Of a stretch of DNA of 64,000 nt, positions 1,540 through 56,951 are shown one piece after another. Under the pieces are notes generated by a model that was given only the letters and a program-made list of their open reading frames with translations, was not told where the DNA came from and did no database searches. Made by a program: the position numbers and the translations under genes. Source of the stretch: Fistulifera solaris (taxonomy: Eukaryota); assembly GCA_030295235.1 (NCBI GenBank), contig AP026158.1, positions 248,001-312,000 on the forward strand, written 5' to 3'. Position 1 is the first letter of the stretch, and every line of letters begins with the position of its first letter.

Positions 1540-2807
1540 ATGTCTTCCATTCTTTCTTCGACCAGTCATCATGTCCGAGGCAGCTCATTGGCCTTTCAAA
1601 ACATTTTGGTCGTCATTAAACAAACGGCCTTTGAAGAATATTCACAGGTAAGCTTGAGACGTTCATTTCGTTCTTCTACTATAAAAACTCATTCATTTCT
1701 TTCTTATTCACTACTTTTAGTTGAAATTACGAGGCCAAGCCCCGAAAGCTCTCCGTTGGTCACGTCTCGAACAACGATTCTTGCAACACAAACAATGTGT
1801 TACCGATTTATTAGAAATTTTACGACAACATGCCGTCCCGTTCAGTTGCGTCAATCGTGTCGAATTGGATCGACAACATTTGTCGGATATTGATTTGGTG
1901 ATTAGTGTGGGAGGCGATGGCACGTTGCTCAGTGCGGCGCATTTTCTCGATCACGGGACGATTCCTCTCTTGGGCATTAATTCTGATCCCAATATTCGGA
2001 AAGAAGATTTAGTTGTCAAAAGAAAACATCCGATGAACGACGATCGCATGGTGCTTTGTGTATGTGTCATTCCTTTGATATGAAACAACATCTCGATGAA
2101 GTTTTGTACGGTGGTGGCCGCTTGCAGGTCCGGACCCGCATTCGTTGTAAAGTCAAAAGTACCTTTTCGGAAACCTTGCTGGTACCCGCCTTGAACGATT
2201 TGTTGTTGGCGAATCCATCTCCGGCGGCCGTTAGTCGATTTCGGATGGGATTTATGAAATTGCGACCGGAAGGAGCTCGACCGTCCGAAACCTACGGAAC
2301 CGTCACACGGTTTGGGGGGAAACCGTACGATGTCGTCGATTCCATCAATGTACGTACTTTATATATATTGTGTGAAATATGTGTATGTATGTGTTCTTCC
2401 ATGTCTCATCCCTTCACACATTATCAGGTTTGGTCGTCCGGAATGTGGGTATCGACCGGAACGGGTTCCACGGCCGCCATGCATGCGGCCGGAGGACGAC
2501 CCATGGATTTGGAAAGTCGCGATTTGCAATATCTCATAAGAGAACATATGATTGAACGACAAGCTTCCTATACGTCGTTGGATGAAGCACCTTATTCGCC
2601 CCATCGCGTCGACAATGGTTTCGTGCATCATGAGGAAAAGATGCACGTGCGATGGAATTCTCAAAAGGAAAAATTTTCATTGATGGATCGCATTTGACCC
2701 ATAATTTGGAATTGGGAGATGAAATTATGATTGATAACAAAGCACCACCATTGAAAATCTTTGCCAAGGCCGATATGGAAGAACAAGAAGGAAGGTCGTT
2801 GGAATGA
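1540..2807 (+). CDS. NAD(H) kinase (plant NADK3-like); introns 1648-1720 and 2350-2427; apparent frameshifts near 2020-2050 and 2670
   Basis: VGGDGTLL, LGINSDP, ALND and SSGMWVSTGTGSTAAM motifs across three ORF pieces. Confidence 0.88.
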
Positions 2808-2921
2808 ATGACGATGATGATGATGACAAAAGTAGCTCTCTAGAGCTAGAGCGAAAGGATAGACCCGGTACTTTTATTATCATTTGCACTACTAAGAATT
2901 CATTTTCCCTTTTGTATTTTT

Positions 2922-4001
2922 TTACAAGAACGCATTTTGTTTCAAACCCAACCGCGTCCGCAAATACCATACATAAAAGGCCATGGCCGCAAACGCCATG
3001 GCAAATAGAACAATAAAGGCGGTGGCGACCGCACTGGGACGACTACTGGCCGTATTGATAATCCCATCTTGTCGGACCATGCGGATTCCTTCCAAGTAGT
3101 TGCACGCATTGTTGTTGGGACTTGAAACGATCGAAGCCAAATTGGCTTCACATTTCCCCGAATTTTCGTACAAGAGTTCACACGATTCACGGACTTGATC
3201 CGCATCCGCTTGATCGTTGACATAATAATAGGCGTCGGCGGCTTGCGCATCTTGGTAGTTCTTTTCGTGACACGACAAACAATCCGAATGGATGATAGAT
3301 TCCTTGGAGTAGGGCAAAGTAAATCCCATGATCGATTCAAAGGACGCTTCGGCAAAGTTGGAACAAGTATCGTCCGTAAAGAGTCCCAAATGAATCGCCC
3401 CTCCTTGATTTGCACAGAACGGACCAACGTAGTAGTGGTTACCGTTATTATTATCATTATTGTTGTTGTTGTTGTTGCCGTTTTGAACATTGAGACGATT
3501 GCAGTACATGTAATTTTCGAGTTGGAATCCTTGATTATTATTTTGCAAGCATTCTTCGTGACCGGCTTTCGTCAAACACTCGTTCAAACATTGTTCATCT
3601 CCGTTGCATTGACATTGATTTTGGTATTTCTGACATTCGTATTCGATTTCTTGTCCTCTAATCTGTGAATATGCTTGCATGAAACTATCCATATCCATGA
3701 CATAATCGCCGTATCCGCTGGAACATCCCAAACTTTTACTGGCGGAACACGTCTGCGAAGGACACAATCGAAATCGCACGAGTCGTTTCGTTTCAATCCG
3801 AACATCGGCGTTATCATTCGCGGCATCATTCCATTGTTTAATATGATGACAACCCAAGAATTTGACAGAATAGTTGGCCATCCAAGAATGTTGAAAATTG
3901 TTGTTGTTGTTTTGATCGAGTCGTCGATGTTGCAGGAATGACAATTCCGTCACAGCGGATGCCACGGAAAGGAGTGTCAGTACAGTAACCAGTACTTTCA
4001 T
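2922..4001 (-). CDS. Silicanin-1 (Sin1) family membrane protein, paralog A
   Basis: Signal peptide, RRL motif, Cys- and N/Q-rich lumenal domain (YSVKFLGCHH..KRLVRFRLCP..YGDY, YYVGPFC), C-terminal TM helix and short cytosolic tail. Confidence 0.85.
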   Translation of the reverse strand: MKVLVTVLTLLSVASAVTELSFLQHRRLDQNNNNNFQHSWMANYSVKFLGCHHIKQWNDAANDNADVRIETKRLVRFRLCPSQTCSASKSLGCSSGYGDYVMDMDSFMQAYSQIRGQEIEYECQKYQNQCQCNGDEQCLNECLTKAGHEECLQNNNQGFQLENYMYCNRLNVQNGNNNNNNNDNNNGNHYYVGPFCANQGGAIHLGLFTDDTCSNFAEASFESIMGFTLPYSKESIIHSDCLSCHEKNYQDAQAADAYYYVNDQADADQVRESCELLYENSGKCEANLASIVSSPNNNACNYLEGIRMVRQDGIINTASSRPSAVATAFIVLFAMAFAAMAFYVWYLRTRLGLKQNAFL

Positions 4002-4435
4002 GGTGGCGTTTGCAATGAAGAACCAATGAATTGCTGTTGAAGATCAATCCAGAAGGAAAGGATAAAAAAGGCAAAGGAACGAGAGAAATTGTGTTTACAA
4101 TGTATATATACGACCATCGCAAATGATACGCCTGCTTCATTTTGCCTTTCGTTCGGAGATCGTCGTTTTGGCGAAATCGACTTCCGTTGGAAACAGCGAG
4201 CACACGGATTCCTATTTCTTACATTAAATATAACACGTGTTCTGTGACACTTACTTAACGGAAAATGGGTCCAAGGGAACATATCCAAATCTACCGTCTT
4301 TATTATTATTTACGAAGTTATTATCCGATACATCCGAAACCCATTTTCATTCGTTACCGCTACGACCTGCCCCACCCCCCAAAACCATGGAGGAAACAAG
4401 GCAACAACACACTTTTTTTTTCTTCGTCTTCGACC

Positions 4436-5967
4436 ATGTTGTTAGGTCAACTCAGTTCCAGAAAACAACACTATCAAACCATTCATGATGATACAAAAGA
4501 TAAGGATAAACTATATACGGAAAGTAAAGAGGAAAAGGAACGAATCATGGGACGACTGTCTCACTTTTTGTTTGGATTCATGTACGAAGACGACGACGAC
4601 GACGACGACGACGACTTGGAGGACTTGGACGATTATTCTAGTTCCAAGATGGAATCGTGGACTCCTCTCTACAATTCACTCAACTTGGCGCTTGCTACCG
4701 CCATTGCGACGACGGCAGCGGCCGAATCGGCTCCTTTAACGTTAATGGCGGCCATGAGTGATCAATTTTCGGATCTGGCATCCTTGTCCTCGCAAACGGC
4801 GGCCGCGGCGGTGTTGGGAGCCGCCTTGGGAAATTCATCAACGGGCCTCTCATTGATCTGATGGGAGCCCGCCGTATCTTGTACATTCGTCCCTCTTGCT
4901 GTGCTTGTCTTTAATATTCTTGGCCCTGTCACAAACAGCGATCATGGCCATCGTCGCCTGTTTTCTCATTGAATTCACTTCCACCGTACAATGGCCTTGT
5001 ATTGTAGTGATACTGGCAACGCATTATCGCGGCAGTGGCAAGTACGAAGGTGGAATCTTTGTCACTTCGTTAGGATCCCGGATGGGAGCTTTGTTGGCGA
5101 TACCCGTTTACACGGGCCTGTTGCCGCAGTGGCGGGTCGTGGCATTGAGTGGAGGATGGTTGGCCCTCGTGTCGTGCTCGATTGTGTATCTGTACGTGCA
5201 AGATGCACCCCATCAACTGCATGCACCCCAAAATCCTATTGCTCGTCATCCGCAAGAAGGAACATTTCGTCTTTGGATGCATGTCCTAGAGGACAATATC
5301 GTCCCTTCCGTGCGGCACATTTGTGCGAGTCCTACCTTTTGGTGGGTCGCCTTGGCGCATGCGGGATCGGCGACTGTACGGTCGTCGGAACGGGTCTTGG
5401 CGACGTATTTTTACGAAACGGGTACGAAAGAATCGGCGGGCTTGGCCGTGTATTTGTCCATTGGCATCACTCTGGGTCTCGTGATAGCCGGCAATGCTTT
5501 CGCCAGTCAATCGGAACGCGAACGCAAACACTTGGTGTCACGGTTGTATTTGGCCAGCATTGTGGCTTGCTATGCACTCGCCGCCATGGCCTTACCGGCG
5601 ATTCATAAAATTGCTCCCCGATTTGATGCGGATTTTTCAAATCATGGCCGTCGTCGTGGCGGGGTTCGGGATAGCCGTGCCCTTGTATCATATCCCTAGT
5701 TTGGTCGGAGCTACCTTTGGTTGTGATAAGGGAATGTATGCGGCCTATACCGATGGTGTCGGATACGGTCTTTCTTCGATAGTGTGGGGAGTGATTGTGG
5801 GCGGTTCTTTGCAAGGACATCACGGCGATGGAGTGGGTTGGGCGTATGGATGGGCGGCCGTGGCATTACTTTTGATTCTATCATCTATTCTGATGATCGA
5901 GTTTATGGAGTATCACTTTTGCCGCCCTCGTCATGGTGGCACCTACGAGACAATCATTTTTGCATAA
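4436..5967 (+). CDS. MFS transporter; frameshifts near 4835 and 5620
   Basis: Multiple hydrophobic helices. After frame repair there is an MFS motif-A-like G-x-L-I-D-x-x-G-A-R-R. Confidence 0.65.
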
Positions 5968-20406: not shown

Positions 20407-23291
20407 ATGCCGAATAGCGATGAGAACAACGACAGTTGTGAGTCAACCGAAGAGTTGGAAGAACGAACACGAACTGTCCTTGATTACAGTTCCAGTATTG
20501 ATTTAAAGGAGGCTTTGTCGGAAGCTTTTGCAGGAAAGAAGAAGGATGTTGTGTTACCCAATCCAGCGAGTGAATCTGCACCGGAATCGAGAATGAATGC
20601 TGTGCACGTGGGGTGTTTTGGAGGTGTTGGATGCTCACCAAATGCCGTATCAAACATTCATGACGTACGTAAAACGAAGCTTTGTTGCCAATTGCAATAT
20701 TTTCTCTCTCTGTTTTTTCGTACTAACCGATCTTATTGGTTATTCTGTGCACATTAGACTGCATTTGACTGGGTGCTTACGAATTATGATGAAACGACGA
20801 CCGAGGCGCAGTCTATGGAAGAAGAAATGCATCGTTTGCTCGTTTTGAAATCATACTTGATCTTGGATTCGGATCGCGAGGAGGCGTTTGAACGATTGAC
20901 TGGATTGGGTTCGCGTATTTTTGACGTGCCGATCTGCCTAGTCTCTTTAGTAGATTTGGGAAGGCAGTGGTTCATGTCCAACAAAGGACTTGGTGTTTGT
21001 CGTCAAACCAACCGGAGAGTAGCCTTTTGTGCGCATGCGATCCAACTTAAGCCGGGCTTAAAGACTCTAGTTGTCCCAGATGCTAGAGATGATTTCAGAT
21101 TTCGTGACAGTCCTTTGGTGCTCGGTCCCCCATTCATTCGGTTTTATGCAGGAGCACCTCTAATATCTCCTGAAGGTTACAAGGTACGAAAATGAAAATG
21201 CAATCTATTCTGACTTGGTTTCTGGTTTTATCTACTGACAAATATGCTGTTGTGCTCTGGCTTTGTTACTGGTGATAGCTTGGAACTTTTTGTATCATCA
21301 GCCCCGAGCCTCGACCACAAGGATTATCGGAAGAGGAACAAGATAGTCTTATCGATTTGGCCAATCTTACAGTAAAGACAATGGTGGACCGTCGCATACA
21401 ATTGGAAAGTCGTGAAGACCCTGCTCGTTTGATTGCATACACGTCACACGACTTGATGACGCCGTTGAGCGGCGTTCAGTTAGCATTATCTCTGCTATCT
21501 GAAGACGACGATGTCTTGTCGAAGCTAGACGCTCATCAAAACGAGCTGCTTTCCACTGCCGCAAATTGTTCGGACATTATGATTCGGATATGTAAGAGTT
21601 CGATTGAAAGTCTTCGTCACAGCAATTCTAACTCGAAGCGGAACTTACTTGGGAAGGAGAATGATGGCGGAAAGGAAAAGATTACCAAAATTGTGGAGCT
21701 GGTCAAGTCTTTACAAGTCATTGCGGAACCCATTCCGAAACGAGCACCTCTTGTTATTACACTCTGTCCAAATGTACCGCATCGGCTGGTGTCGGATGAT
21801 CTAAAAATTTTTCGATCAGTTTTGAATCTCGTCAAGGATGCCATACTCCGCACTGAAGCTGGAAAAGTGCATTTAACGATTTTTAAAGAAGAACAGGACG
21901 AAACAGAAGTCGCGGATGGCGCGGAAGCGAAGAAATATGTAAAATTTGAATGCGAAGACACTGGGCCCGACGTGTCCATTGGTGAAGCTCCATTTCTTTT
22001 CGAGTCCAATGTCGAAAATTCACAAACTCGACTCGGACTTCATTCTATTGCCAACCTTATCAAATCTCTGGATGGAACGTATGGTTATCGAAAACGAGGA
22101 CAAAATTTACAAGGATCAATATTTTGGTTCTCTATACCACTCATTGTGACTGGTATTCAAGGTGACGAATCGGTCCATAGTTTCTCCTTCAGCATGAACA
22201 GCAACTCGAATCTTCATAGTATTCAAAGAAGAAGCACTGCTAACGGTACCGCAACTCCTGCAGAAACAACTAGTTTTGGTCGTTGTCCATCTGCTGGATC
22301 GCTTAATTCGCTATCTTCACAGGAGGAGGAAGGCCAATATCGAATCAAACGTGCTTTGATTATTGACGACTCGGTAATCGTACGGAAGACGATTGATCGT
22401 GCCTTGACAAAACTTGGATTTGTGGTCGAACAAGCAGAAGACGGATCCGTGGGATTGAATGCTATGAAGCAAACAATGTTTGACATGGTTCTTTGTGACT
22501 TTTTGATGCCGGTTATGGATGGCCTAGATTGCGTGAAGCAATATCGTGAATGGGAAAAAGAGCATCGCCCAACATTTCGACAGTATATCGTCGGTATCTC
22601 TGCCCATATTGGCGTCCAGGAAAGTGGGCAAGGCCTAGAGGCTGGCATGAATGTCTTTCGACCAAAGCCGATCAGTATGAGAAACCTGACAGAGTTGCAA
22701 GAATCAAAGCCGGTTCAACGGATTGTGAAGCAGTTGGACAGATTAGCAAGTAGCTCATCACCCGAGCGATGCGATCCGCTTTCATCTTGCAAGGCTGATG
22801 AAACATGCTCGCTACCATCATCACCTCCTGGAGAGGTCTTAGCGTTGAAGCGACGTTTAGAAAGTATGGTTGTAACTACTCGGGTGGAAAATCGATATGC
22901 ACTTGTGTTGAGTGAAGAAAGCAACTCATGTCTCGACAAGATGAAAGTAGACGGGTGGCATGTCATTCTTTCACAGAGTTCTGCGGATTTTGAAGGCCAT
23001 ATACGAAAGCGAAACTGGGATTTGGTTCTAGTCGACGAGGAAATACCATTCCTTTCTGCGCCGCGCTTGATATCCGATTTTCGAGAATGGGAAGCCGCCA
23101 ACCGTGTGAATGAACAGAAAAACGTGTTTTTTGTATCAGGGAGCGACATACCTCGTCCCTCGGATAAACACTCTATCGTTCGACCGCCTTCGGGTTTCAA
23201 CGGTGTTCTTCGAAAGCCAATCGAATGGGAGGATATTGATCACTTGCTCAATCGCAACAAGAATTTCTTGAACATTTTGGTGCCGAAGTAA
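20407..23291 (+). CDS. GAF-sensor hybrid histidine kinase with two receiver domains; introns 20665-20757 and 21184-21278
   Basis: GAF (FCAHAI, IRFYAGAPL, LGTFCI), H-box SHDLMTPL, DTG and GSIFWFSIP, REC1 (IIDDS, CDFLMPVMDG, KP), degenerate REC2. May start at ATG 20222 if upstream frameshifts are errors. Confidence 0.88.
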
Positions 23292-43671: not shown

Positions 43672-44740
43672 ATGACATTGCCACTTGACCGAAATGTTCA
43701 ACGACCCTCAAATGAATACGTGCTCGTGAGTAAAAAATTTGGAATTGTACTCCTCAATGACTATTCGGTCATACTGACAGTGCACATTGCATGTTGTTAC
43801 AGAATGTAGCTTTCTTATCGTTCTTAGCGTTTACAACGTTGCAGCTCTTTTTTGCTGTCATTGCGAAATCTCACGCAATGATGGAAGACTGTATAGGTGA
43901 GTGAATTTGGCGGTAGCGCAACCGAAGCTCGATTTTCTTACCTTCCATGCCAAAACAGCCATGTTTGTTGATGTCATCACATATCTCTTCAATTTTCTTG
44001 CGGAGCGCTTGAAACACAAAGTTTCGGAAGGCAATTTCAACGACTCCGGGAGCGGGCGCTTGTATCGATTGTATCTTGAATTGATTCCGCCGTTTCTAAG
44101 TGTCGTAACATTATTGATTGTAACAATACTCGGGTTAAAAACCGCTATCAAAACATTGCGCGAAGCTCCTAAAGACCAGGGATCTCAGCCGGATATCACC
44201 ATAATGCTTTGGTTCTCGGGGCTGAATTTACTGTTGGACTTCCTTAATGTAACTTGCTTTGCCAGAGTTGATCAAGCGATCGGCATATCTCAACTACAGA
44301 ATCAGTTTAATCTTTTCCGCTCGCAACGCGATGAGAGCTCGGAAATGATAGCTACAGAAGCTACGGAGCTTTTGGCTAAGGGTCGTCAACACAATGGATG
44401 TACGACTTGTGACGAAGACGAGATGAGCGTATCATCAGATGACACTGAAGCAAAAGGAGGTCTCAACTTGAACATGTGCTCAGCCTGGACACACATTTGC
44501 GCCGACACACTTCGAAGTCTGGCTGTACTAGTGGCCGCCAGCTTTGCAGCAATATGCCCGAAGATCATTACTCCCGCAGATGCGGATTCATGGGGGTCGA
44601 TCGTCGTCTCCATTGTTATTTTAGCAAGTCTTGTTCCATTGTTTGAGGGTCTCTACATAACGGCATGTAAGATTGGCGATGTATGGCAATCAAACTCAAA
44701 GCACCGCACTAAGAGAGCAGTCACACATTTAACAGTTTAA
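43672..44740 (+). CDS. Cation diffusion facilitator (CDF/ZnT) family transporter A; introns about 43726-43802 and 43897-43958
   Basis: S.AM..D..AMFVD..TY.FN..AE and NLNMCSAWTHICADTLRS..VL.A motifs; paralogous to 55436-56482. Confidence 0.82.
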
Positions 44741-46894: not shown

Positions 46895-47522
46895 ACGCGA
46901 TTGTTGATCACGAGGAGAAGATAAGATCCTACGACTGTCTACGTCGCCGAAAAGACTTTGTTCACCGCCACTGCTGAATTGACCGCAAGTGCACATTTTA
47001 TCCTGCGCAAACTTGAGTTGTCCAAATCTACAAGTTTCAGGATACGAGCTATTGGATACATGGGAGCTTTTGAGTCAAGTTGAAGTCATTCCAGGCATGA
47101 CAGATTGCACCGCCGCGTTTATGGCAACAGGCTATGGCCAAGCTTTTGTGTTTGAGAAAGCTGCCATGAAAATGTATGCAATCGATGCAATTGAGCTTTT
47201 ACACAGCATTCACGGGGAAGTCACAGCAACAGCCCGGACAGATTTCACGACTAGTCTTATAGTATCAACCACCGATTTAACGTTCATGCCCAACTCTGCT
47301 GCTGTATCTGGTGCACCGGTTGGCTATGCATGCGTTGCGGAAGAACATCATGATCACTCGGCGCCCGCTGCAGCCCCGACGGCATCTGGTGACGATGCTC
47401 CCACGACACCTGAAAACAGTGCTCCTGTGGCCAGCAGAAGCAACAGCGACGAATCATTCGCAAGCCACGTCGGGGCAGGGATGTTCGTGTTGGCGCTCTG
47501 CGTTGTAGCCATGAATATCTGA
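46895..47522 (+). pseudogene. 5'-degraded copy of the AztD-like gene (old diverged fragments plus near-identical 3' part)
   Basis: 46899-46922 and 46934-47004 are diverged matches to about 48968-48990 and 49049-49123. 47015-47522 is near-identical to 49661-50154 except for a 14-nt insertion. Confidence 0.85.
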
Positions 47523-48477
47523 TTTAACAATTTTATTTCGTAGTGTTGAAAAATTGCATACAATTTATGTAGTACTTCATAGTTGTTTGGTCTCGCGTTG
47601 TTGACGTTTATTCCCACAAGGCTTTAACTTCTATGATCGTTGTGCAGCAGATAGGCCTTTAGCCACTTAATGATAGTTGGTAGTTATGAACTGTAAATAA
47701 TAAAAATAGATTATACGCTGTCACATTCACATTTCAGGTGTTACAGCAACATGTCGCGCCGCGTGTCCAAATTATTTTATGGGCAAGTTTGAAGCCGAGA
47801 GTTAAATCAAAAGCCGGCACTGGCCTTTTCAAGGCTCATGTTGTTGGCCTAATTTGTGTGCGCACGAGAAGTTGTTTGCTGTCGTGGCCATTCTGAATTC
47901 CAATGCGTTGCGGAAGAACATCATGATCACTCGGCGCCCGCTGCAGCCCCGACGGCATCTGGTGACGATGCTCCCACCACACCTGAAAACAGTGCTCCTG
48001 TGGCCAGCAGAAGCAACAGCGACGAATCATTCGCAAGCCACGTCGGGGCAGGGATGTTCGTGTTGGCGCTCTGCGTTGTAGCCATGAAGATCTGATTTAA
48101 CAATTTTATTTCGTAGTGTTGAAAAATTGCATACAATTTATGTAGCACTTCATAATTGTTTGGTCTCGCGTTGTTGACGTTTATTCCCACAAGGCTTTAA
48201 CTTCTATGATCGTTGTGCAGCAGATAGGCCTTTAGCCACTTAATGATAGTTGGTAGTTATGAACTGTAAATAATAAAAATAGATTATACGCTGTCACATT
48301 CACATTTCAGGTGTTACAGCAACATGTCACGCCGCGTGTCCAAATTATTTTATGGGCAAGTTTGAAGCCGAGAGTTAAATCAAAAGCCGGCACTGGCCTT
48401 TTCAAGGCTCATGTTGTTGGCCTAATTTGTGTGCGCACGAGAAGTTGTTTGCTGTCGTGGCCATTCTGAATTCCAAT
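47332..48477 (+). repeat. Tandem direct repeat, 2 x 573 bp (3' end of AztD-like CDS plus intergenic/promoter)
   Basis: 47332-47904 matches 47905-48477 with about 5 substitutions; the CDS part recurs at 49964-50154. Confidence 0.95.
48329..48341 (+). promoter_or_regulatory. Candidate iron/metal-responsive element ACGCCGCGTGTCC
   Basis: Matches the consensus A(A/C)G(G/C)CGC(A/G)TG recalled for Phaeodactylum low-iron promoters; about 240 nt upstream of ATG 48572. Confidence 0.35.
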
Positions 48478-48571: not shown

Positions 48572-50154
48572 ATGGTATTATCTTTCTCTTTCTTCTCGTT
48601 GATGGCTTCTGCTATCTCAGGAGTTGCTGCAGAGCGTTTGTGCACAAACGGACGACTGTTTGTTGCCGATGCTAACTCGTCGTCGGTTCACTACTTTGAT
48701 CTGGATGGAGAACTTGAAGCATTGACATCAACTGGAAAACTCCTTGACGGGATTGCTGAAATTGAAGGACAAGCTATATACTCCGTTGGTGACAATGAGA
48801 TCGCTATTGTTCACCGTGGCGTGGAAACGGCAATGTACGAAGATGGCTCCATCTACTTTTACCGAGCAGGAACAACCCTTGAGTCGCATGGAGACCACGT
48901 TGATGTCCAGAAGAGCGAACCCTCTGAGTTGCAAAACGCGAAAATCAATTGCGCTCGCGCGACGCACATTGTTGATCACGACGACAAGATTGCTGTCTTC
49001 TGCGACGGGTACTTCAACCCGGATCCAAGTCAAGCTCAAGTGAACACAACTGTCTACGTCGTTGACAAGACTCTCTTCTCTTTCACTGCTGAGCCTACCG
49101 CTATTGCGCACTCTGTTGTTCTCGCAGGAAGCCATCACGGGGTTGCTATTCCAGTAGATGATGATCATCTGCTAGTGTCAGTTGCCCTCCCAGAACGCGT
49201 CGCGCGTGTGGAAAATAGCTCGGCATTGCCAAACGGTTTCGTGGTGCAGGACTACAATGGAAATCTCCTTCACAATTTAAATGTGGCTGATGACAAAGAC
49301 CGCTCGTGTGTCGGCTTCCATGGAAGTGCTGCTGTGGAGGGCAAATTGGCGTTGGGATGTGATTCCTCACATGGAGGGATCTTGTTGGTAGACTATGAGC
49401 CAACTTCAGCCATGTACACATCTCGATCGCTTCTCTACCCAAACGGCTTCGCTGACCACCGTGTGGGGTCCTTTCTCGAGCACCCCGTGCGCGCCACATT
49501 ATCGGAAACTTCAATAGTGACTTGTCGTTCAACATGTTTGCCTTTGATCCAACACTCGAAAGTATCTCTGATAACCACATGCTTTCTCTACCCGCCAAGG
49601 CATGCTCTTCGGCATATGAGCAGGCCGAAGCGAAAGTTATCTTTACTTTGCTGGCAACGGGAGTTGTCCAAATCTACAAGTTTCAGGATACATGGGAGCT
49701 CTTGAGTCAAGTTGAAGTCATTCCAGGCATGACAGATTGCACCGCCGCGTTTATGGCAACAGGCTATGGCCAAGCTTTTGTGTTTGAGAAAGCTGCCATG
49801 AAAATGTATGCAATCGATGCAATTGAGCTTTTACACAGCATTCACGGGGAAGTCACAGCAACAGCCCGGACAGATTTCACGACTAGTCTTATAGTATCAA
49901 CCACCGATTTAACGTTCATGCCCAACTCTGCTGCTGTATCTGGTGCACCGGTTGGCTATGCATGCGTTGCGGAAGAACATCATGATCACTCGGCGCCCGC
50001 TGCAGCCCCGACGGCATCTGGTGACGATGCTCCCACGACACCTGAAAACAGTGCTCCTGTGGCCAGCAAAAGCAACAGCGACGAATCATTCGCAAGCCAC
50101 GTCGGGGCAGGGATGTTCGTGTTGGCGCTCTGCGTTGTAGCCATGAAGATCTGA
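48572..50154 (+). CDS. AztD-like (bacterial zinc metallochaperone, beta-propeller) secreted protein with His-rich linker and predicted GPI-anchor signal; frameshift near 49485
   Basis: Signal peptide; RLFVAD, SHGDH, THIVDH, HHGVAIP, CVGFHGSA, ALGCD motifs; EEHHDH, A/P/T/S linker and terminal hydrophobic stretch. Confidence 0.72.
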
Positions 50155-50352: not shown

Positions 50353-51894
50353 TTATGGCCTGCCATTCTTGTTCTGAATGCGTATTGGTGTAGATGTTGT
50401 CACGAGGTGTGTAGAATTTCTTTTCGAGCTTGGCCTTCCGTTCTGCTTGCTGCTTTTTTTGCTTGTGCTACTTCTTTTTCTAGTAATGGGTATTTCGCTA
50501 TAAAAACTTTCGCTCTTCCTTCCTCTGGATCGCGTTGTTTTGTTTGAATCATTTTGTCCGCTATCAGCACTTGCATGTTCGTCTGCACTACCCTTGTTGC
50601 TGTGAATCTTTGTGCGACTTGTTTGACTGGCATATTTCCCACTCCTTTCGTTACTTTTCTTTGCACTTGACGAATATCTACGCGACATTTTGGTCGAAGC
50701 TTTACTGGATGGTTGGACGGGAGGTTGAAGGGGAGAAGTAACGGGAGGGTCGTTCGGCGGTGTCAAGGAGGGGGCCGTATCGTTTGGCGGAGTCACAGAA
50801 GGGACTGTATCATTCGGTGGTGTCACAGAGGGTGCTATCGGTGCAAAGGGAGGATTGGTCGGCGGAGCCAAAGGCGCAGCAATTGGTGATATAGGAGTAT
50901 TTGTTGTTGATTCGACCGGAGACGGGGGTGTTGGAGAACTTGTAGCACCGGGTAAATCGAGTGGAGCGACCGAAGGAGCCAGTGATTGATTAGGAGCTGT
51001 TGTACTACAGCTGCTGGGCGGATTTGATGACAATTCACAGATTCCGGCTTCAATAAAATCGCTATATTTTGTCACGTCGGTGTAAATTTGAGGCGCAATT
51101 GACATGCAACTTTCCGTAAAGGAGAATATTCCATACTGTATATCTTCGGTAGCATGAATCAGTGGACCACCTTCATCGTCAAAACACGATCCTATCGCAG
51201 CTGTAACACTCCCCGCACATATTTGTGAGTTGGAATCTAATCGTTCGGAATACACGTCAATGCATTCATCAAAATCCAAAACATTGATTTCCGCCTCCAG
51301 AAGCAAAGCGGAAAATTCGGTATTATTGAACAGTCCAAAACCCATCACCCGAAGTGGTTCATTGACCGCCGGCCGTGAAGTTGTCGCAATAGTCACAGTC
51401 GGTTCTGTTCGAGGTGCATCAATTTTGACCAGCATGATATCGTTCGCCCTGGATATTTCGTTGAATTCCGGATGTGACAGCCGTTGTGTTACAATAAGCT
51501 GAGATCCACTTTTCCATTGTACACTTCCAATATACGGGTTTGCAGTTTGTGCCGCCGGACAACTTGCGACTGTCAGTATGATATCCTCGTGTATCAATGT
51601 GCCTCCACAGGTACTATCATCATCCCCGGGAAAATGCACAAAATAGGGATACGTCAAGTTATCCGCCACCGGAGTTCCTCCAATAATACTCGGAAGAACG
51701 AAACCTGCAGCGGGCTCAACATCCGGTTGAAACCACAAGACGGAATCCGTCTGACCAGCGCGAGGCGCCGTATCCACTGACGGCCTCCGAAATACATTCG
51801 GTCGAAGAGACGAACGAGGCCTGTTCTTTACTACTGGCGGAGCAATCAAGGGAAGCATTTGAAAACTGTTGTAGAGGAAACATGATTGGTGCAA
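50353..51894 (-). CDS. Trypsin-like serine protease homolog (catalytically inactive) with Pro-rich linker and Ser/Lys/Arg-rich tail
   Basis: IIGG, CGGTLI, LTVASC (His lost), NDIMLVK, SCFDDEGGPL (Ser lost). Start uncertain. Confidence 0.82.
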   Translation of the reverse strand: MHQSCFLYNSFQMLPLIAPPVVKNRPRSSLRPNVFRRPSVDTAPRAGQTDSVLWFQPDVEPAAGFVLPSIIGGTPVADNLTYPYFVHFPGDDDSTCGGTLIHEDIILTVASCPAAQTANPYIGSVQWKSGSQLIVTQRLSHPEFNEISRANDIMLVKIDAPRTEPTVTIATTSRPAVNEPLRVMGFGLFNNTEFSALLLEAEINVLDFDECIDVYSERLDSNSQICAGSVTAAIGSCFDDEGGPLIHATEDIQYGIFSFTESCMSIAPQIYTDVTKYSDFIEAGICELSSNPPSSCSTTAPNQSLAPSVAPLDLPGATSSPTPPSPVESTTNTPISPIAAPLAPPTNPPFAPIAPSVTPPNDTVPSVTPPNDTAPSLTPPNDPPVTSPLQPPVQPSSKASTKMSRRYSSSAKKSNERSGKYASQTSRTKIHSNKGSADEHASADSGQNDSNKTTRSRGRKSESFYSEIPITRKRSSTSKKSSKQNGRPSSKRNSTHLVTTSTPIRIQNKNGRP

Positions 51895-55435: not shown

Positions 55436-56482
55436 TCACACCTCGATGCTGTGAAGAGGTGGGTTTTTGTGCAAAGTCTGCAATTGTCGTGCCGTGATCA
55501 TCAATCCCCGTAGGAGCGGAAGGACACTGATAAATATAATTAACGAAACGACAATGGCGGCTATCGAGTCGGCGACGGCACCGTCAACACTAGATACCAG
55601 TGTTGCAATGATCGCAGCAATTAGGACGGCAGCGGACCGCAAGGTGTCGGCGCACACATGCTGTTGCAGATCAATGAGAAAACGAATGAGAGGATGATAC
55701 TCCGTACTCATTTCACAAGCAACTTTAGCAAGAAGTACTCACCGTCCATGCACTGCACATGTTCAAATTCACCAGCTCAATATCTTCGTTCTCGTCATAA
55801 ACAACTCGTTTATCGGAATGCAGCAGACTTGATGACTCGTTGACTGTTTCCTCAGGATAGCCCATTTCCACTGTCTTCTTACGCTGAGATGGTTTTATTA
55901 TATCAAGTCCGTAAATGGAATTCGCTTGAGCAAAGCAAGTGACATTGACAATGTCTAGCAGAAGATTCGCTCCTGAAAACGATAGCATTATGGGTACCGA
56001 CACGTCTTCTACTTCATCGTCGTCGGTAGTTGATGACCCGAAAAGTGCAGAGAATGCCTCGTTTAGCGTCATGACTGTAACCGCGATCAATGTCATGATA
56101 CTCAAAGCAGGCGGAATCAGCTCCAGATAAAGTCTTTGGAGTTCTCTTCGGTAAGCCCGATGTTTCCCGGGTAATTCCAGTTCGCTCGCTGAAAAGGGCG
56201 CGTTTTGATCCGCTCGGCCATTAAATTAAACATGTAAGTCAACGCATCCACAGACATTGCTTCCGAGTCCGCTAGCATTGCTTGGCTGTTCGCAATCAAA
56301 GCAAAGACTGCTTGGATAAGTAAAAAGCCGACAAAACTCAGAAACGCCACGTTTAGCACATATTCGTTCGACAGACTCTCCGCATCGTCCGAAGGTTTCT
56401 TCTCAGTTACAATGCTGTTGTTTTCACTCCCTTCATCATCGGCGATACTGCCAAATGATCGTTCCACTTCTCTCGGTGCCAT
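55436..56482 (-). CDS. CDF/ZnT family transporter B; intron 55661-55742; frameshift(s) near 56150-56190
   Basis: SNEYVLNVAFLSF, SQAMLADSEAMSVDALTY, NLNMCSAWTHVCADTLRSAAVLIA; paralog of 43672-44740. Confidence 0.82.
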
Positions 56483-56951
56483 CTTTCGTTTTGAAGAAGA
56501 GAAAAAACGTTCGATCGTCGTGGAAAAACCCCATGTACTCCAATTTGTGTTCTTCGGTGGTTATCACTGCACGACACACCTTGCGGTTTTATGGGACGAG
56601 AACCGAACCGCCACGCGCCGACAGTAGCACGCGACTTCAACCTTGTCTGACGTCGGGGGACGTGTACAACTTTACCATATGCGATGACCTCGGGAAAACG
56701 CCATGGGTGGATTACATAGAGATGTTAGTACCGTTTGATGTGATTAGGCGCGTGCTTGGCACGCGAAACCCCAATCGTACGCGGTTTGATGATTCGTTTC
56801 ATTCGTGACTCAAGATTCACCGAGGGCCGAGGCTAGAGTGATACTTGTACGTGATACTCCGTGCTCCGTCTCGTTGTACTCAGTGGCTATTATTGTGAAA
56901 GGAGGCTCTTGAGAAGCTTAGTGTGAATGTAGACGACTTAAAAAGGAAAAG

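Follow-up and report, generated by a model that had tools for sequence, protein, structure and literature searches.

A 64,000-nucleotide stretch of the genome of the diatom Fistulifera solaris (contig AP026158.1, positions 248,001 to 312,000; hereafter the window, in which position 1 is its first letter) carries on its forward strand, at 48572-50154, an intronless nuclear gene whose product is related to AztD, a zinc-binding and zinc-transferring protein of bacteria. Exact look-up of the window protein identified the gene as FisN_29Lh063 (GAX14853.1). Its homeolog FisN_29Hh063 (GAX21626.1, also P0022 below) is intact, encodes 527 aa, lies on a different contig and falls into the same protein cluster. 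It is well supported that these proteins belong to a eukaryotic, membrane-tethered branch of the AztD superfamily, and a link of this branch to transporters of the ZIP family is credible. The role that we favour, with moderate confidence, is that of a surface protein that would capture zinc and feed it to ZIP importers.

Homology to AztD in sequence, fold and zinc ligands

The relationship to AztD is visible in the sequence as well as in the predicted fold. The NCBIfam model NF038015 (AztD) was the only family matched, by the N-terminal part of the window protein with an E-value of 5.3e-17 (61.6 bits) and by the homeolog with 1.2e-18 (67 bits), and a phmmer search against PDB sequences returned PdAztD (6ck1, 3.9e-8) and CkAztD (6cmk, 1.6e-6). 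The Pfam scan of the protein yielded no family, the best match being an unrelated propeller at 0.079. An AlphaFold2 model of the homeolog, calculated with 16 relatives in the alignment, has 33 strands arranged in eight blades (pLDDT 79.2, pTM 0.79), and in a Foldseek search of the PDB ranks 1-9 were all occupied by AztD chains (E 2e-21 to 5e-17, TM by target 0.81-0.83), followed by aromatic amine dehydrogenase as the next match (E 4e-9, TM 0.50). Searching the ESM Atlas with the relative P0073 gave no usable match. The likeness to AztD, which a sequence-only reading of this DNA had proposed, is thereby borne out by both sequence and fold, and "AztD-like" is an apt description. The same reading does not extend to AztD proper: the curated AztD cut-off is 400 bits, and because the protein stays far below it, it is best classed as a remote but clear AztD-like relative. 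The bacterial relatives that were found with the algal profile reach 88-171 bits with the same model.

The structural report on PdAztD (PMC6689063) describes a site 1 in the central pore formed by His124, His167 and His218, a site 2 formed by His99, (Gly100), His102 and Asp104 together with the C-terminal His408, and a conserved disulfide Cys214-Cys231. All AztD ligands and disulfide cysteines named in this report align to His, Asp or Cys residues of the diatom protein (Table 1). The complete site-1 His triad was found in 67 of the 72 algal-type rows of the family alignment described below, in 41/42 bacterial rows and in all four aligned Diplonema repeats; C246 is present in 72/72, H250 in 71/72 and C263 in 71/72 algal-type rows, and C246 and C263 in 41/42 bacterial rows each. 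The algal clade moreover has six extra conserved cysteines (C24, C127, C144, C345, C390 and C465), i.e., three Cys pairs. These additional pairs, the varied C-terminal modules (Cys-rich ends, Hint), the low AztD score and the functional diversity of beta-propellers in general could be taken to mean that the propeller has lost metal trafficking and now functions at the surface in adhesion, as a receptor or as an enzyme. We regard this as quite improbable, as the retention of the pore His triad in nearly all algal-type rows, at a mean column identity of 21%, is hard to explain without a metal site.

The sequence-only reading had described the His cluster behind the last blade as a tag that was added to the bacterial protein. 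This did not hold: His-rich C-terminal tails also occur in the bacterial relatives and the C-terminal His of PdAztD is a site-2 ligand according to the structural report, so that the cluster is inherited and not added. The residues H470, H471 and H473 come after the last strand in a region modelled with pLDDT<50 and are candidates for the C-terminal His of site 2.

Compared with AztD of Paracoccus denitrificans and Citrobacter koseri (PDB 6CK1, 6CMK, 6N01), to which its identity is approximately 20%, the diatom protein shares the eight-bladed propeller fold, the pore His triad, the HGxHxD hairpin site, the C-terminal His, the conserved disulfide and a predicted placement outside the cytosol. 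It differs in adding three conserved Cys pairs, approximately 100 residues, a stalk and a predicted membrane anchor. Furthermore, the diatom gene is a eukaryotic nuclear gene without an aztABC operon or a cluster A-I binding protein (AztC), and no ZnuA-type or ABC genes were present among the 42 window open reading frames (ORFs) scanned. The likely acceptor would accordingly differ as well, being a ZIP channel-type importer for the diatom protein and an ABC binding protein for AztD.

Architecture and membrane tether

The elements listed by the sequence-only reading, i.e., an intronless ORF, a signal peptide, the His motifs, a spacer and a tail-less hydrophobic end, are all present in the translations. 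The first frame contains SHGDH (aa 105-109), THIVDH (aa 131-136), HHGVAIP (aa 188-194) and C-V-G-F-H-G (aa 246-251), and the second frame contains EEHHDH (aa 468-473, 49972-49989), followed by a stretch of Ala, Pro, Thr and Ser. The region of the signal peptide was modelled with pLDDT<50 as a free N-terminus, and the residue after the likely cleavage site is E, which argues against a diatom plastid presequence.

The terminal hydrophobic stretch V511-I527 was confirmed to end without a cytosolic tail. Signals for attachment of a glycosylphosphatidylinositol (GPI) anchor consist of an omega site with small residues, a polar spacer of about seven residues and a hydrophobic C-terminus, preceded by a flexible linker. 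Judged by eye, the triplet S501-N502-S503, the spacer DESFASH and the 17 hydrophobic residues are compatible with these rules, and the C-terminal hydrophobic signal would most simply be a GPI-attachment signal, or else a tail-less membrane anchor. A crude omega-site scan of relatives (23/41) was uninformative. The stalk may be glycosylated.

Among the 72 algal-type rows 41 end in a hydrophobic tail, 16 in a transmembrane helix with a cytosolic tail of 20-46 residues and five in a Cys-rich end, while ten are truncated or end otherwise. The hydrophobic tails, the transmembrane helices and one Hint module suggest that attachment to a membrane or to the surface is the common theme of the algal-type proteins. 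The Hint (hedgehog/intein-type) module was observed in the relative P0067. The short Cys-rich ends are of two kinds, found in P0008, P0069 and P0070 and in P0009 and P0061, respectively, one of which shows the repeated pattern CGMFGLSIFC...CG.FRRL.NMG.C.

Distribution and origin of the family

Word-index protein searches returned 20-21 relatives each among the matches listed, and a profile built from 16 relatives and searched against 1.84 billion representative proteins matched 476 clusters at E<=0.001, 242 at 1e-10 and 108 at 1e-30. Because relatives were recovered by both kinds of search, the sequence family is considered to be real and not a product of chance. It is mainly bacterial. For the phylogeny, 118 rows covering at least 300 profile positions were used in a FastTree tree for which no root was inferred; the labels "algal" and "bacterial" were assigned to rows from sequence features, few clusters carrying organism names. 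In this tree 72 rows form one branch with a support of 99, and their proteins share a eukaryote-style build with signal peptide, N-terminal C-T-x-G-x-L motif and C-terminal anchor. A quick IQ-TREE tree of 55 of the 118 rows again placed the algal-type rows on one side of a branch (SH-aLRT 96). Named members of the algal clade are F. solaris, Symbiodinium natans, an MMETSP transcript and Rhodomonas salina and thus comprise a diatom, a dinoflagellate and a cryptophyte, and the named records on the bacterial side are a metagenome-assembled genome of Candidatus Dadabacteria as well as Spirochaetia, Myxococcaceae and Rheinheimera.

The algal clade thus appears as a single branch among bacterial relatives that is not confined to diatoms, and any transfer from bacteria would consequently be old and not diatom-specific. 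Of the proposal that the diatom protein was acquired horizontally, the bacterial relatives stand, and a diatom-specific event is contradicted by S. natans and R. salina in the same branch. As bacterial diversity surrounds the algal clade, a bacterial origin is the simpler reading; with both trees unrooted, we infer the direction from bacterium to alga. No named homolog from Phaeodactylum or Thalassiosira was found among the 7998 word-sharing candidates scored, which is not evidence of absence. A profile search of genome contigs with the algal alignment recovered no relative, its patterns being too algal-specific, and the bacterial loci discussed below were found in genome contigs by a single-protein query.

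In a family of mainly bacterial membership it has to be considered that the gene entered the assembly as bacterial contamination or by misassembly. This is extremely improbable and would require the entire 64 kb to be chimeric. The flanks encode ribosomal protein L6e, pentatricopeptide repeat (PPR) proteins, an ankyrin ion channel, threonine synthase and a trypsin-like protease, and because the surrounding ORFs are eukaryotic, contamination is excluded. Moreover, the homeolog lies on another contig, the clade includes named eukaryotic members and the protein ends in a eukaryote-type stalk and terminal hydrophobic signal.

Links to zinc transport in relatives

A connection to zinc import is suggested by gene fusions and gene adjacency in relatives. 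Of 26 long relatives scanned against Pfam, the protein KAJ9458053.1 of Diplonema papillatum (P0102, 2432 aa), deposited as "Histidine-rich membrane protein KE4-like protein 1", consists of a signal peptide, five tandem AztD-like repeats and a ZIP domain (PF02535, E 5e-52, 2114-2422). It resembles the diatom protein in having His-triad AztD-like propellers on the non-cytosolic side of a eukaryotic membrane, and differs in that five tandem propellers are fused to ZIP, compared with one propeller in the diatom protein. In the same scan ZnuA was found fused to four bacterial-type relatives and ZinT to one.

Locus L003, from a metagenome, contains an algal-type gene (1649-3166) whose product has a hydrophobic C-terminal tail and, 478 bp downstream on the same strand, a ZIP gene (3644-4702; PF02535, E 8e-41) that encodes a long His-rich C-terminal tail. 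The HEIPHE-type motif of this ZIP is one that we take to be of the KE4/ZIP7-like kind, and by the source name of the Diplonema protein its ZIP part is KE4/ZIP7-like, too. No metal transporter was found in the loci L001/L002, L004 and L005, of which L004 spans 3 kb.

Four bacterial loci contain COG0523 (CobW-family) GTPase genes in two cases and TonB-dependent receptors in two cases, and a non-ZnuA ABC importer is also among the neighbours of bacterial relatives. In L007 and L008 the bacterial AztD-like genes lie beside COG0523 GTPases in a context unlike the classical aztABCD operon, and in L007 a MacB/FtsX permease, DUF3299 and a FeoB-like gene are further neighbours. COG0523 neighbours have been described as indicating zinc regulons (PMC2770081).

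Proposed role in zinc capture

The proposed role in zinc capture builds on homology, fold, ligand conservation, tether architecture, nuclear context and, in other eukaryotes, a ZIP that is fused or adjacent to the relative. The protein would enter the secretory pathway and receive a lipid anchor, and its eight-bladed propeller of the AztD superfamily would be displayed on the flexible Pro/Ala/Ser/Thr stalk at the outer face of the plasma membrane or at the luminal face of an endomembrane. Zn2+ would be bound at two sites, the pore site with the three His side chains H132, H189 and H250 and a flexible site with H106, H109, D111 and the C-terminal His cluster. From the latter, zinc might be passed on to an acceptor as in bacterial AztD, where the flexible site 2 delivers the metal through direct contact with its recipient protein. 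In algae this acceptor would be a ZIP-family importer and not the binding protein of an ABC transporter. We infer zinc as the metal, GPI as the anchor, the transfer to ZIP and an induction when zinc is scarce. The presence of two cation-efflux (CDF) metal-transporter genes within 7 kb of the gene is a further point in favour of this role.

Several observations weigh against this role. A site of three His residues is able to accommodate Co, Ni, Cu, Fe(II) or Cd as well. The bit scores of window protein and homeolog do not reach the curated AztD cut-off. Within the algal clade site 2 and the C-terminal His cluster vary: site 2 (HH[DH]) is present in 38/72 algal-type rows, compared with 38/42 bacterial rows, and two or more His in the 16 aa that follow the last conserved Cys (C465) were found in 32/70 algal-type rows. 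The joint occurrence of both in algal rows (22/14/8/21; Fisher p 0.012 before allowing for relatedness) is suggestive and, with relatedness taken into account, not significant (six independent pairs, median p 0.25). As regards the ZIP link, KAJ9458053.1 is a predicted gene model, and both FastTree and IQ-TREE place its repeats within a bacterial-type branch that is distinct from the algal clade, which suggests an independent acquisition. A ZIP neighbour was found in one of four distinct algal metagenome loci (five loci examined), and no ZIP gene is among the 42 window ORFs scanned. CDF transporters export metal from the cytosol, and the CDF neighbours may be there by chance. Finally, KE4/ZIP7-like ZIPs of other eukaryotes are often endomembrane proteins, and because the ZIPs concerned here look KE4/ZIP7-like, the protein may act at an endomembrane instead of at the cell surface.

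The permissiveness of His-only sites also raises the question of whether the propeller might serve at the surface for another metal or complex, such as Co, Ni, Cu, Fe(II), Cd or a metallophore, instead of zinc. FeoB-like genes, TonB-dependent receptors and a non-ZnuA ABC importer beside bacterial relatives would fit this explanation, as would diatom ZCRP proteins, which were reported to respond to Co as well as to Zn (PMC9010474). We nevertheless consider it unlikely, since the only characterised members of the family bind and transfer Zn according to the structural report (PMC6689063), the fusions found, ZIP, ZnuA and ZinT, are all zinc-linked, and the COG0523 neighbours likewise point to zinc regulons.

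Returning to zinc capture, a wider form of the proposal is tentative, and we place its chances somewhat below even: several lineages of marine algae, i.e., diatoms, dinoflagellates and cryptophytes, might possess tethered AztD-like metallochaperones that hand zinc directly to ZIP importers of the KE4/LIV-1 type, and Diplonema might have arrived at the same solution independently via its five-propeller ZIP fusion.

State of the window copy

The gene in the window is interrupted by a frame break. The first ORF (48572..49705, +, standard code) starts with MVLSFSFFSLMASAISGVAAERLC, and the second frame (ORF 49534..50154, +) ends with ...HVGAGMFVLALCVVAMKI before the stop codon at 50152-50154. A frameshift near 49485, as noted by the sequence-only reading, was confirmed: intact relatives read FLEHP-R-A-(R/S)-H at this site, for which five C are required, and the window has four C, i.e., it is one base short. 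The read-through product comprises 305 + 1 + 221 = 527 aa and thus equals the intact homeolog in length. Window copy and homeolog are identical in 290/305 residues upstream and in 199/221 residues downstream of the break, the differences after the break lying mostly in a low-confidence loop (aa 418-441) and in the stalk. A short intron in place of the frameshift was rejected, as by eye no plausible GT..AG span of 3n+2 bases is present around 49460-49520 and the relatives are collinear across the site.

Downstream of the break the frame is open for 221 codons until the stop shared with P0022 and is without sign of decay, from which it follows that the break stems either from a miscount in the homopolymer or from a lesion that arose very recently. 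The F. solaris assembly was presumably derived from 454 pyrosequencing, a method that miscounts homopolymers. The public protein GAX14853.1 (396 aa) reads P-R across the break and has the in-frame segment 49681-50069 spliced out; it is a patched model in which approximately 130 residues of the intact homeolog, the last blades and the His cluster among them, are missing.

The window copy might also be a pseudogene, in which a real loss of one base left the copy of the L subgenome decaying amid truncated duplicates and the H homeolog as the sole functional gene. The broken frame at 49483-49486, the intact homeolog and two truncated copies of the 3' end located just upstream, a sign of local rearrangement, are consistent with such a scenario. 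It has an appreciable chance of being correct, yet we rather doubt it, given the open downstream frame with its high number of matches to the homeolog, the position of the break in a homopolymer and the P-R read across it in the public protein.

Neighbourhood of the gene in the window

The positions of the features discussed are collected in Table 1. One CDF gene is located 3.8 kb upstream of the AztD-like gene and the other 5.3 kb downstream of it; the two are oppositely oriented and have parallel exon translations, e.g., NLNMCSAWTHICADTLRS compared with NLNMCSAWT...QHVCADTLRS. The flanking pair may represent a small metal-homeostasis neighbourhood or may be due to chance. The truncated copies of the AztD-like gene are 98-99% identical to it across the repeat copies compared, and the copy at 47903-48095 directly abuts a duplicate of the sequence upstream of the gene (approximately 47720-47904, like 48290-48476). 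Both truncated copies may be what is left of a tandem array, or else an artefact of repeat assembly. Directly downstream of the AztD-like gene, the reverse strand encodes at 50353-51858 a trypsin-like serine protease (PF00089, E 1e-30) whose C-terminal extension is long, basic and rich in Pro, Ser and Thr. A hybrid histidine kinase with HisKA, HATPase_c and receiver domains occupies one open frame at 21279-23288 (+).

Table 1. Positions, strands and supporting evidence of features of the AztD-like gene and its surroundings in the window.
Feature	Position	Strand	Evidence
Coding part 1, aa 1-305 (signal peptide, blades 1 to ~6), until the frame break	48572..49486	+	ORF translation
Signal peptide, aa 1-20 (MVLSFSFFSLMASAISGVAA)	48572..48631	+	Translation; hydrophobic aa 3-20, hydropathy 1.5; judged from sequence
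Site-2 motif H106-G107-D-H109-V-D111, corresponding to PdAztD His99-Gly100-His102-Asp104	48887..48904	+	phmmer alignment to 6ck1
Site-1 ligand H132, corresponding to PdAztD His124	48965..48967	+	phmmer alignment; His in 68/72 algal-type, 41/42 bacterial, 4/4 Diplonema rows
H188-H189, with H189 as site-1 ligand corresponding to PdAztD His167	49133..49138	+	71/72 algal-type, 42/42 bacterial rows
C246-x-G-F-H250-G ... C263; H250 corresponding to PdAztD His218, C246/C263 to Cys214-Cys231	49307..49360	+	phmmer alignment
Frame break, run of four C	49483..49486	+	Five C needed by intact relatives
Coding part 2, aa 307-527 and stop (last blades, His cluster, stalk, hydrophobic end)	49489..50154	+	ORF translation
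C465 (algal-specific Cys), then E468-E-H-H-D-H473, at the position of the AztD site-2 C-terminal His ligand	49963..49989	+	Sequence
Disordered Ala/Pro/Thr/Ser stalk with candidate GPI triplet S501-N502-S503 (50071-50079) and spacer DESFASH	49990..50100	+	pLDDT<50 for aa 468-524
Terminal hydrophobic stretch V511-I527, 17 residues, no cytosolic tail	50101..50151	+	Hydropathy 2.3
CDF gene, last large exon, HxxxD motif (HICAD)	43901..44740	+	Pfam PF01545, E 2.8e-9
Truncated copy of the 3' part of the gene, matching 49656-50154, no start codon or signal peptide	47010..47522	+	Repeat comparison
Second truncated copy, last 64 codons, matching 49962-50154	47903..48095	+	Repeat comparison
Second CDF gene, paralog of the first, at least 3 exons	55436..56560	-	Pfam PF01545, E 3.8e-7

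Comparison with diatom metal systems and significance

The concept of a bacterial-type metal binder at the diatom surface has a precedent in ZCRP-B, which was reported to be tethered at the surface and for which a function in concentrating Zn/Co for ZIP was proposed (Kellogg et al., 2022; PMC9010474). The concept of feeding ZIP is the same, and the protein differs: as described in this report, ZCRP-B has a NikA-like solute-binding-protein fold and an N-terminal transmembrane helix and thus represents another family with another type of anchor, for which reason ZCRP-B was rejected as a member of the AztD-like family. In its architecture the diatom protein resembles ISIP1, an iron-starvation-induced surface propeller of diatoms that acts on siderophore iron and is described as a metal-acquisition receptor that combines a signal peptide with an extracellular beta-propeller containing Cys residues, a stalk and a membrane anchor at the C-terminus (PMC3491386, PMC5955625). 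ISIP1 differs in its transmembrane helix with an endocytosis motif and in its sequence family. The algal-type subclade with the longer ends of transmembrane helix and tail was considered as ISIP1 and rejected; in a check confined to motifs, the AztD-like family motifs HHGVA and GFHGS had 0 occurrences in Kazamia Table S1 (208,088 characters), in which the ISIP1 alignments are given, and the ISIP1 sequences look unrelated.

In agreement with the sequence-only reading, which knew of no such system in diatoms, a search of the literature on AztD and on zinc, propellers and ZIP in diatoms yielded, among the papers listed, no description of an AztD-type protein in diatoms or algae. The main text of a catalogue of horizontal gene transfer in nine diatoms (bioRxiv 10.1101/2020.01.24.918219) mentions neither zinc nor propellers, and one paper apparently combining AztD and diatoms was irrelevant, AZTD there standing for Arizona Test Dust. 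A zinc-capture role for ZIP importers has probably not been described for algae so far.

Zinc is scarce in surface seawater, and no ZIP transporter is known that receives its metal from a dedicated extracellular chaperone. Diatoms are reported to have an inducible high-affinity zinc uptake with largely unknown parts, for which ZCRP-B is the only surface candidate so far according to the same report (PMC9010474). The AztD-like family adds a second, structurally understood candidate, with a bacterial relative of known crystal structure and known transfer mechanism, and the natural fusion and gene adjacency point to ZIP as a concrete partner. For genome annotation it follows that the public 396-aa model lacks the part of the protein that carries the last blades and the His cluster. 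In addition, the family could serve as a marker of zinc stress in metatranscriptomes. If the wider proposal is true, it would constitute the first extracellular metallochaperone-to-ZIP pathway in eukaryotes and would offer, at the molecular level, a candidate for the inducible zinc uptake of high affinity to which algal physiology has long pointed.

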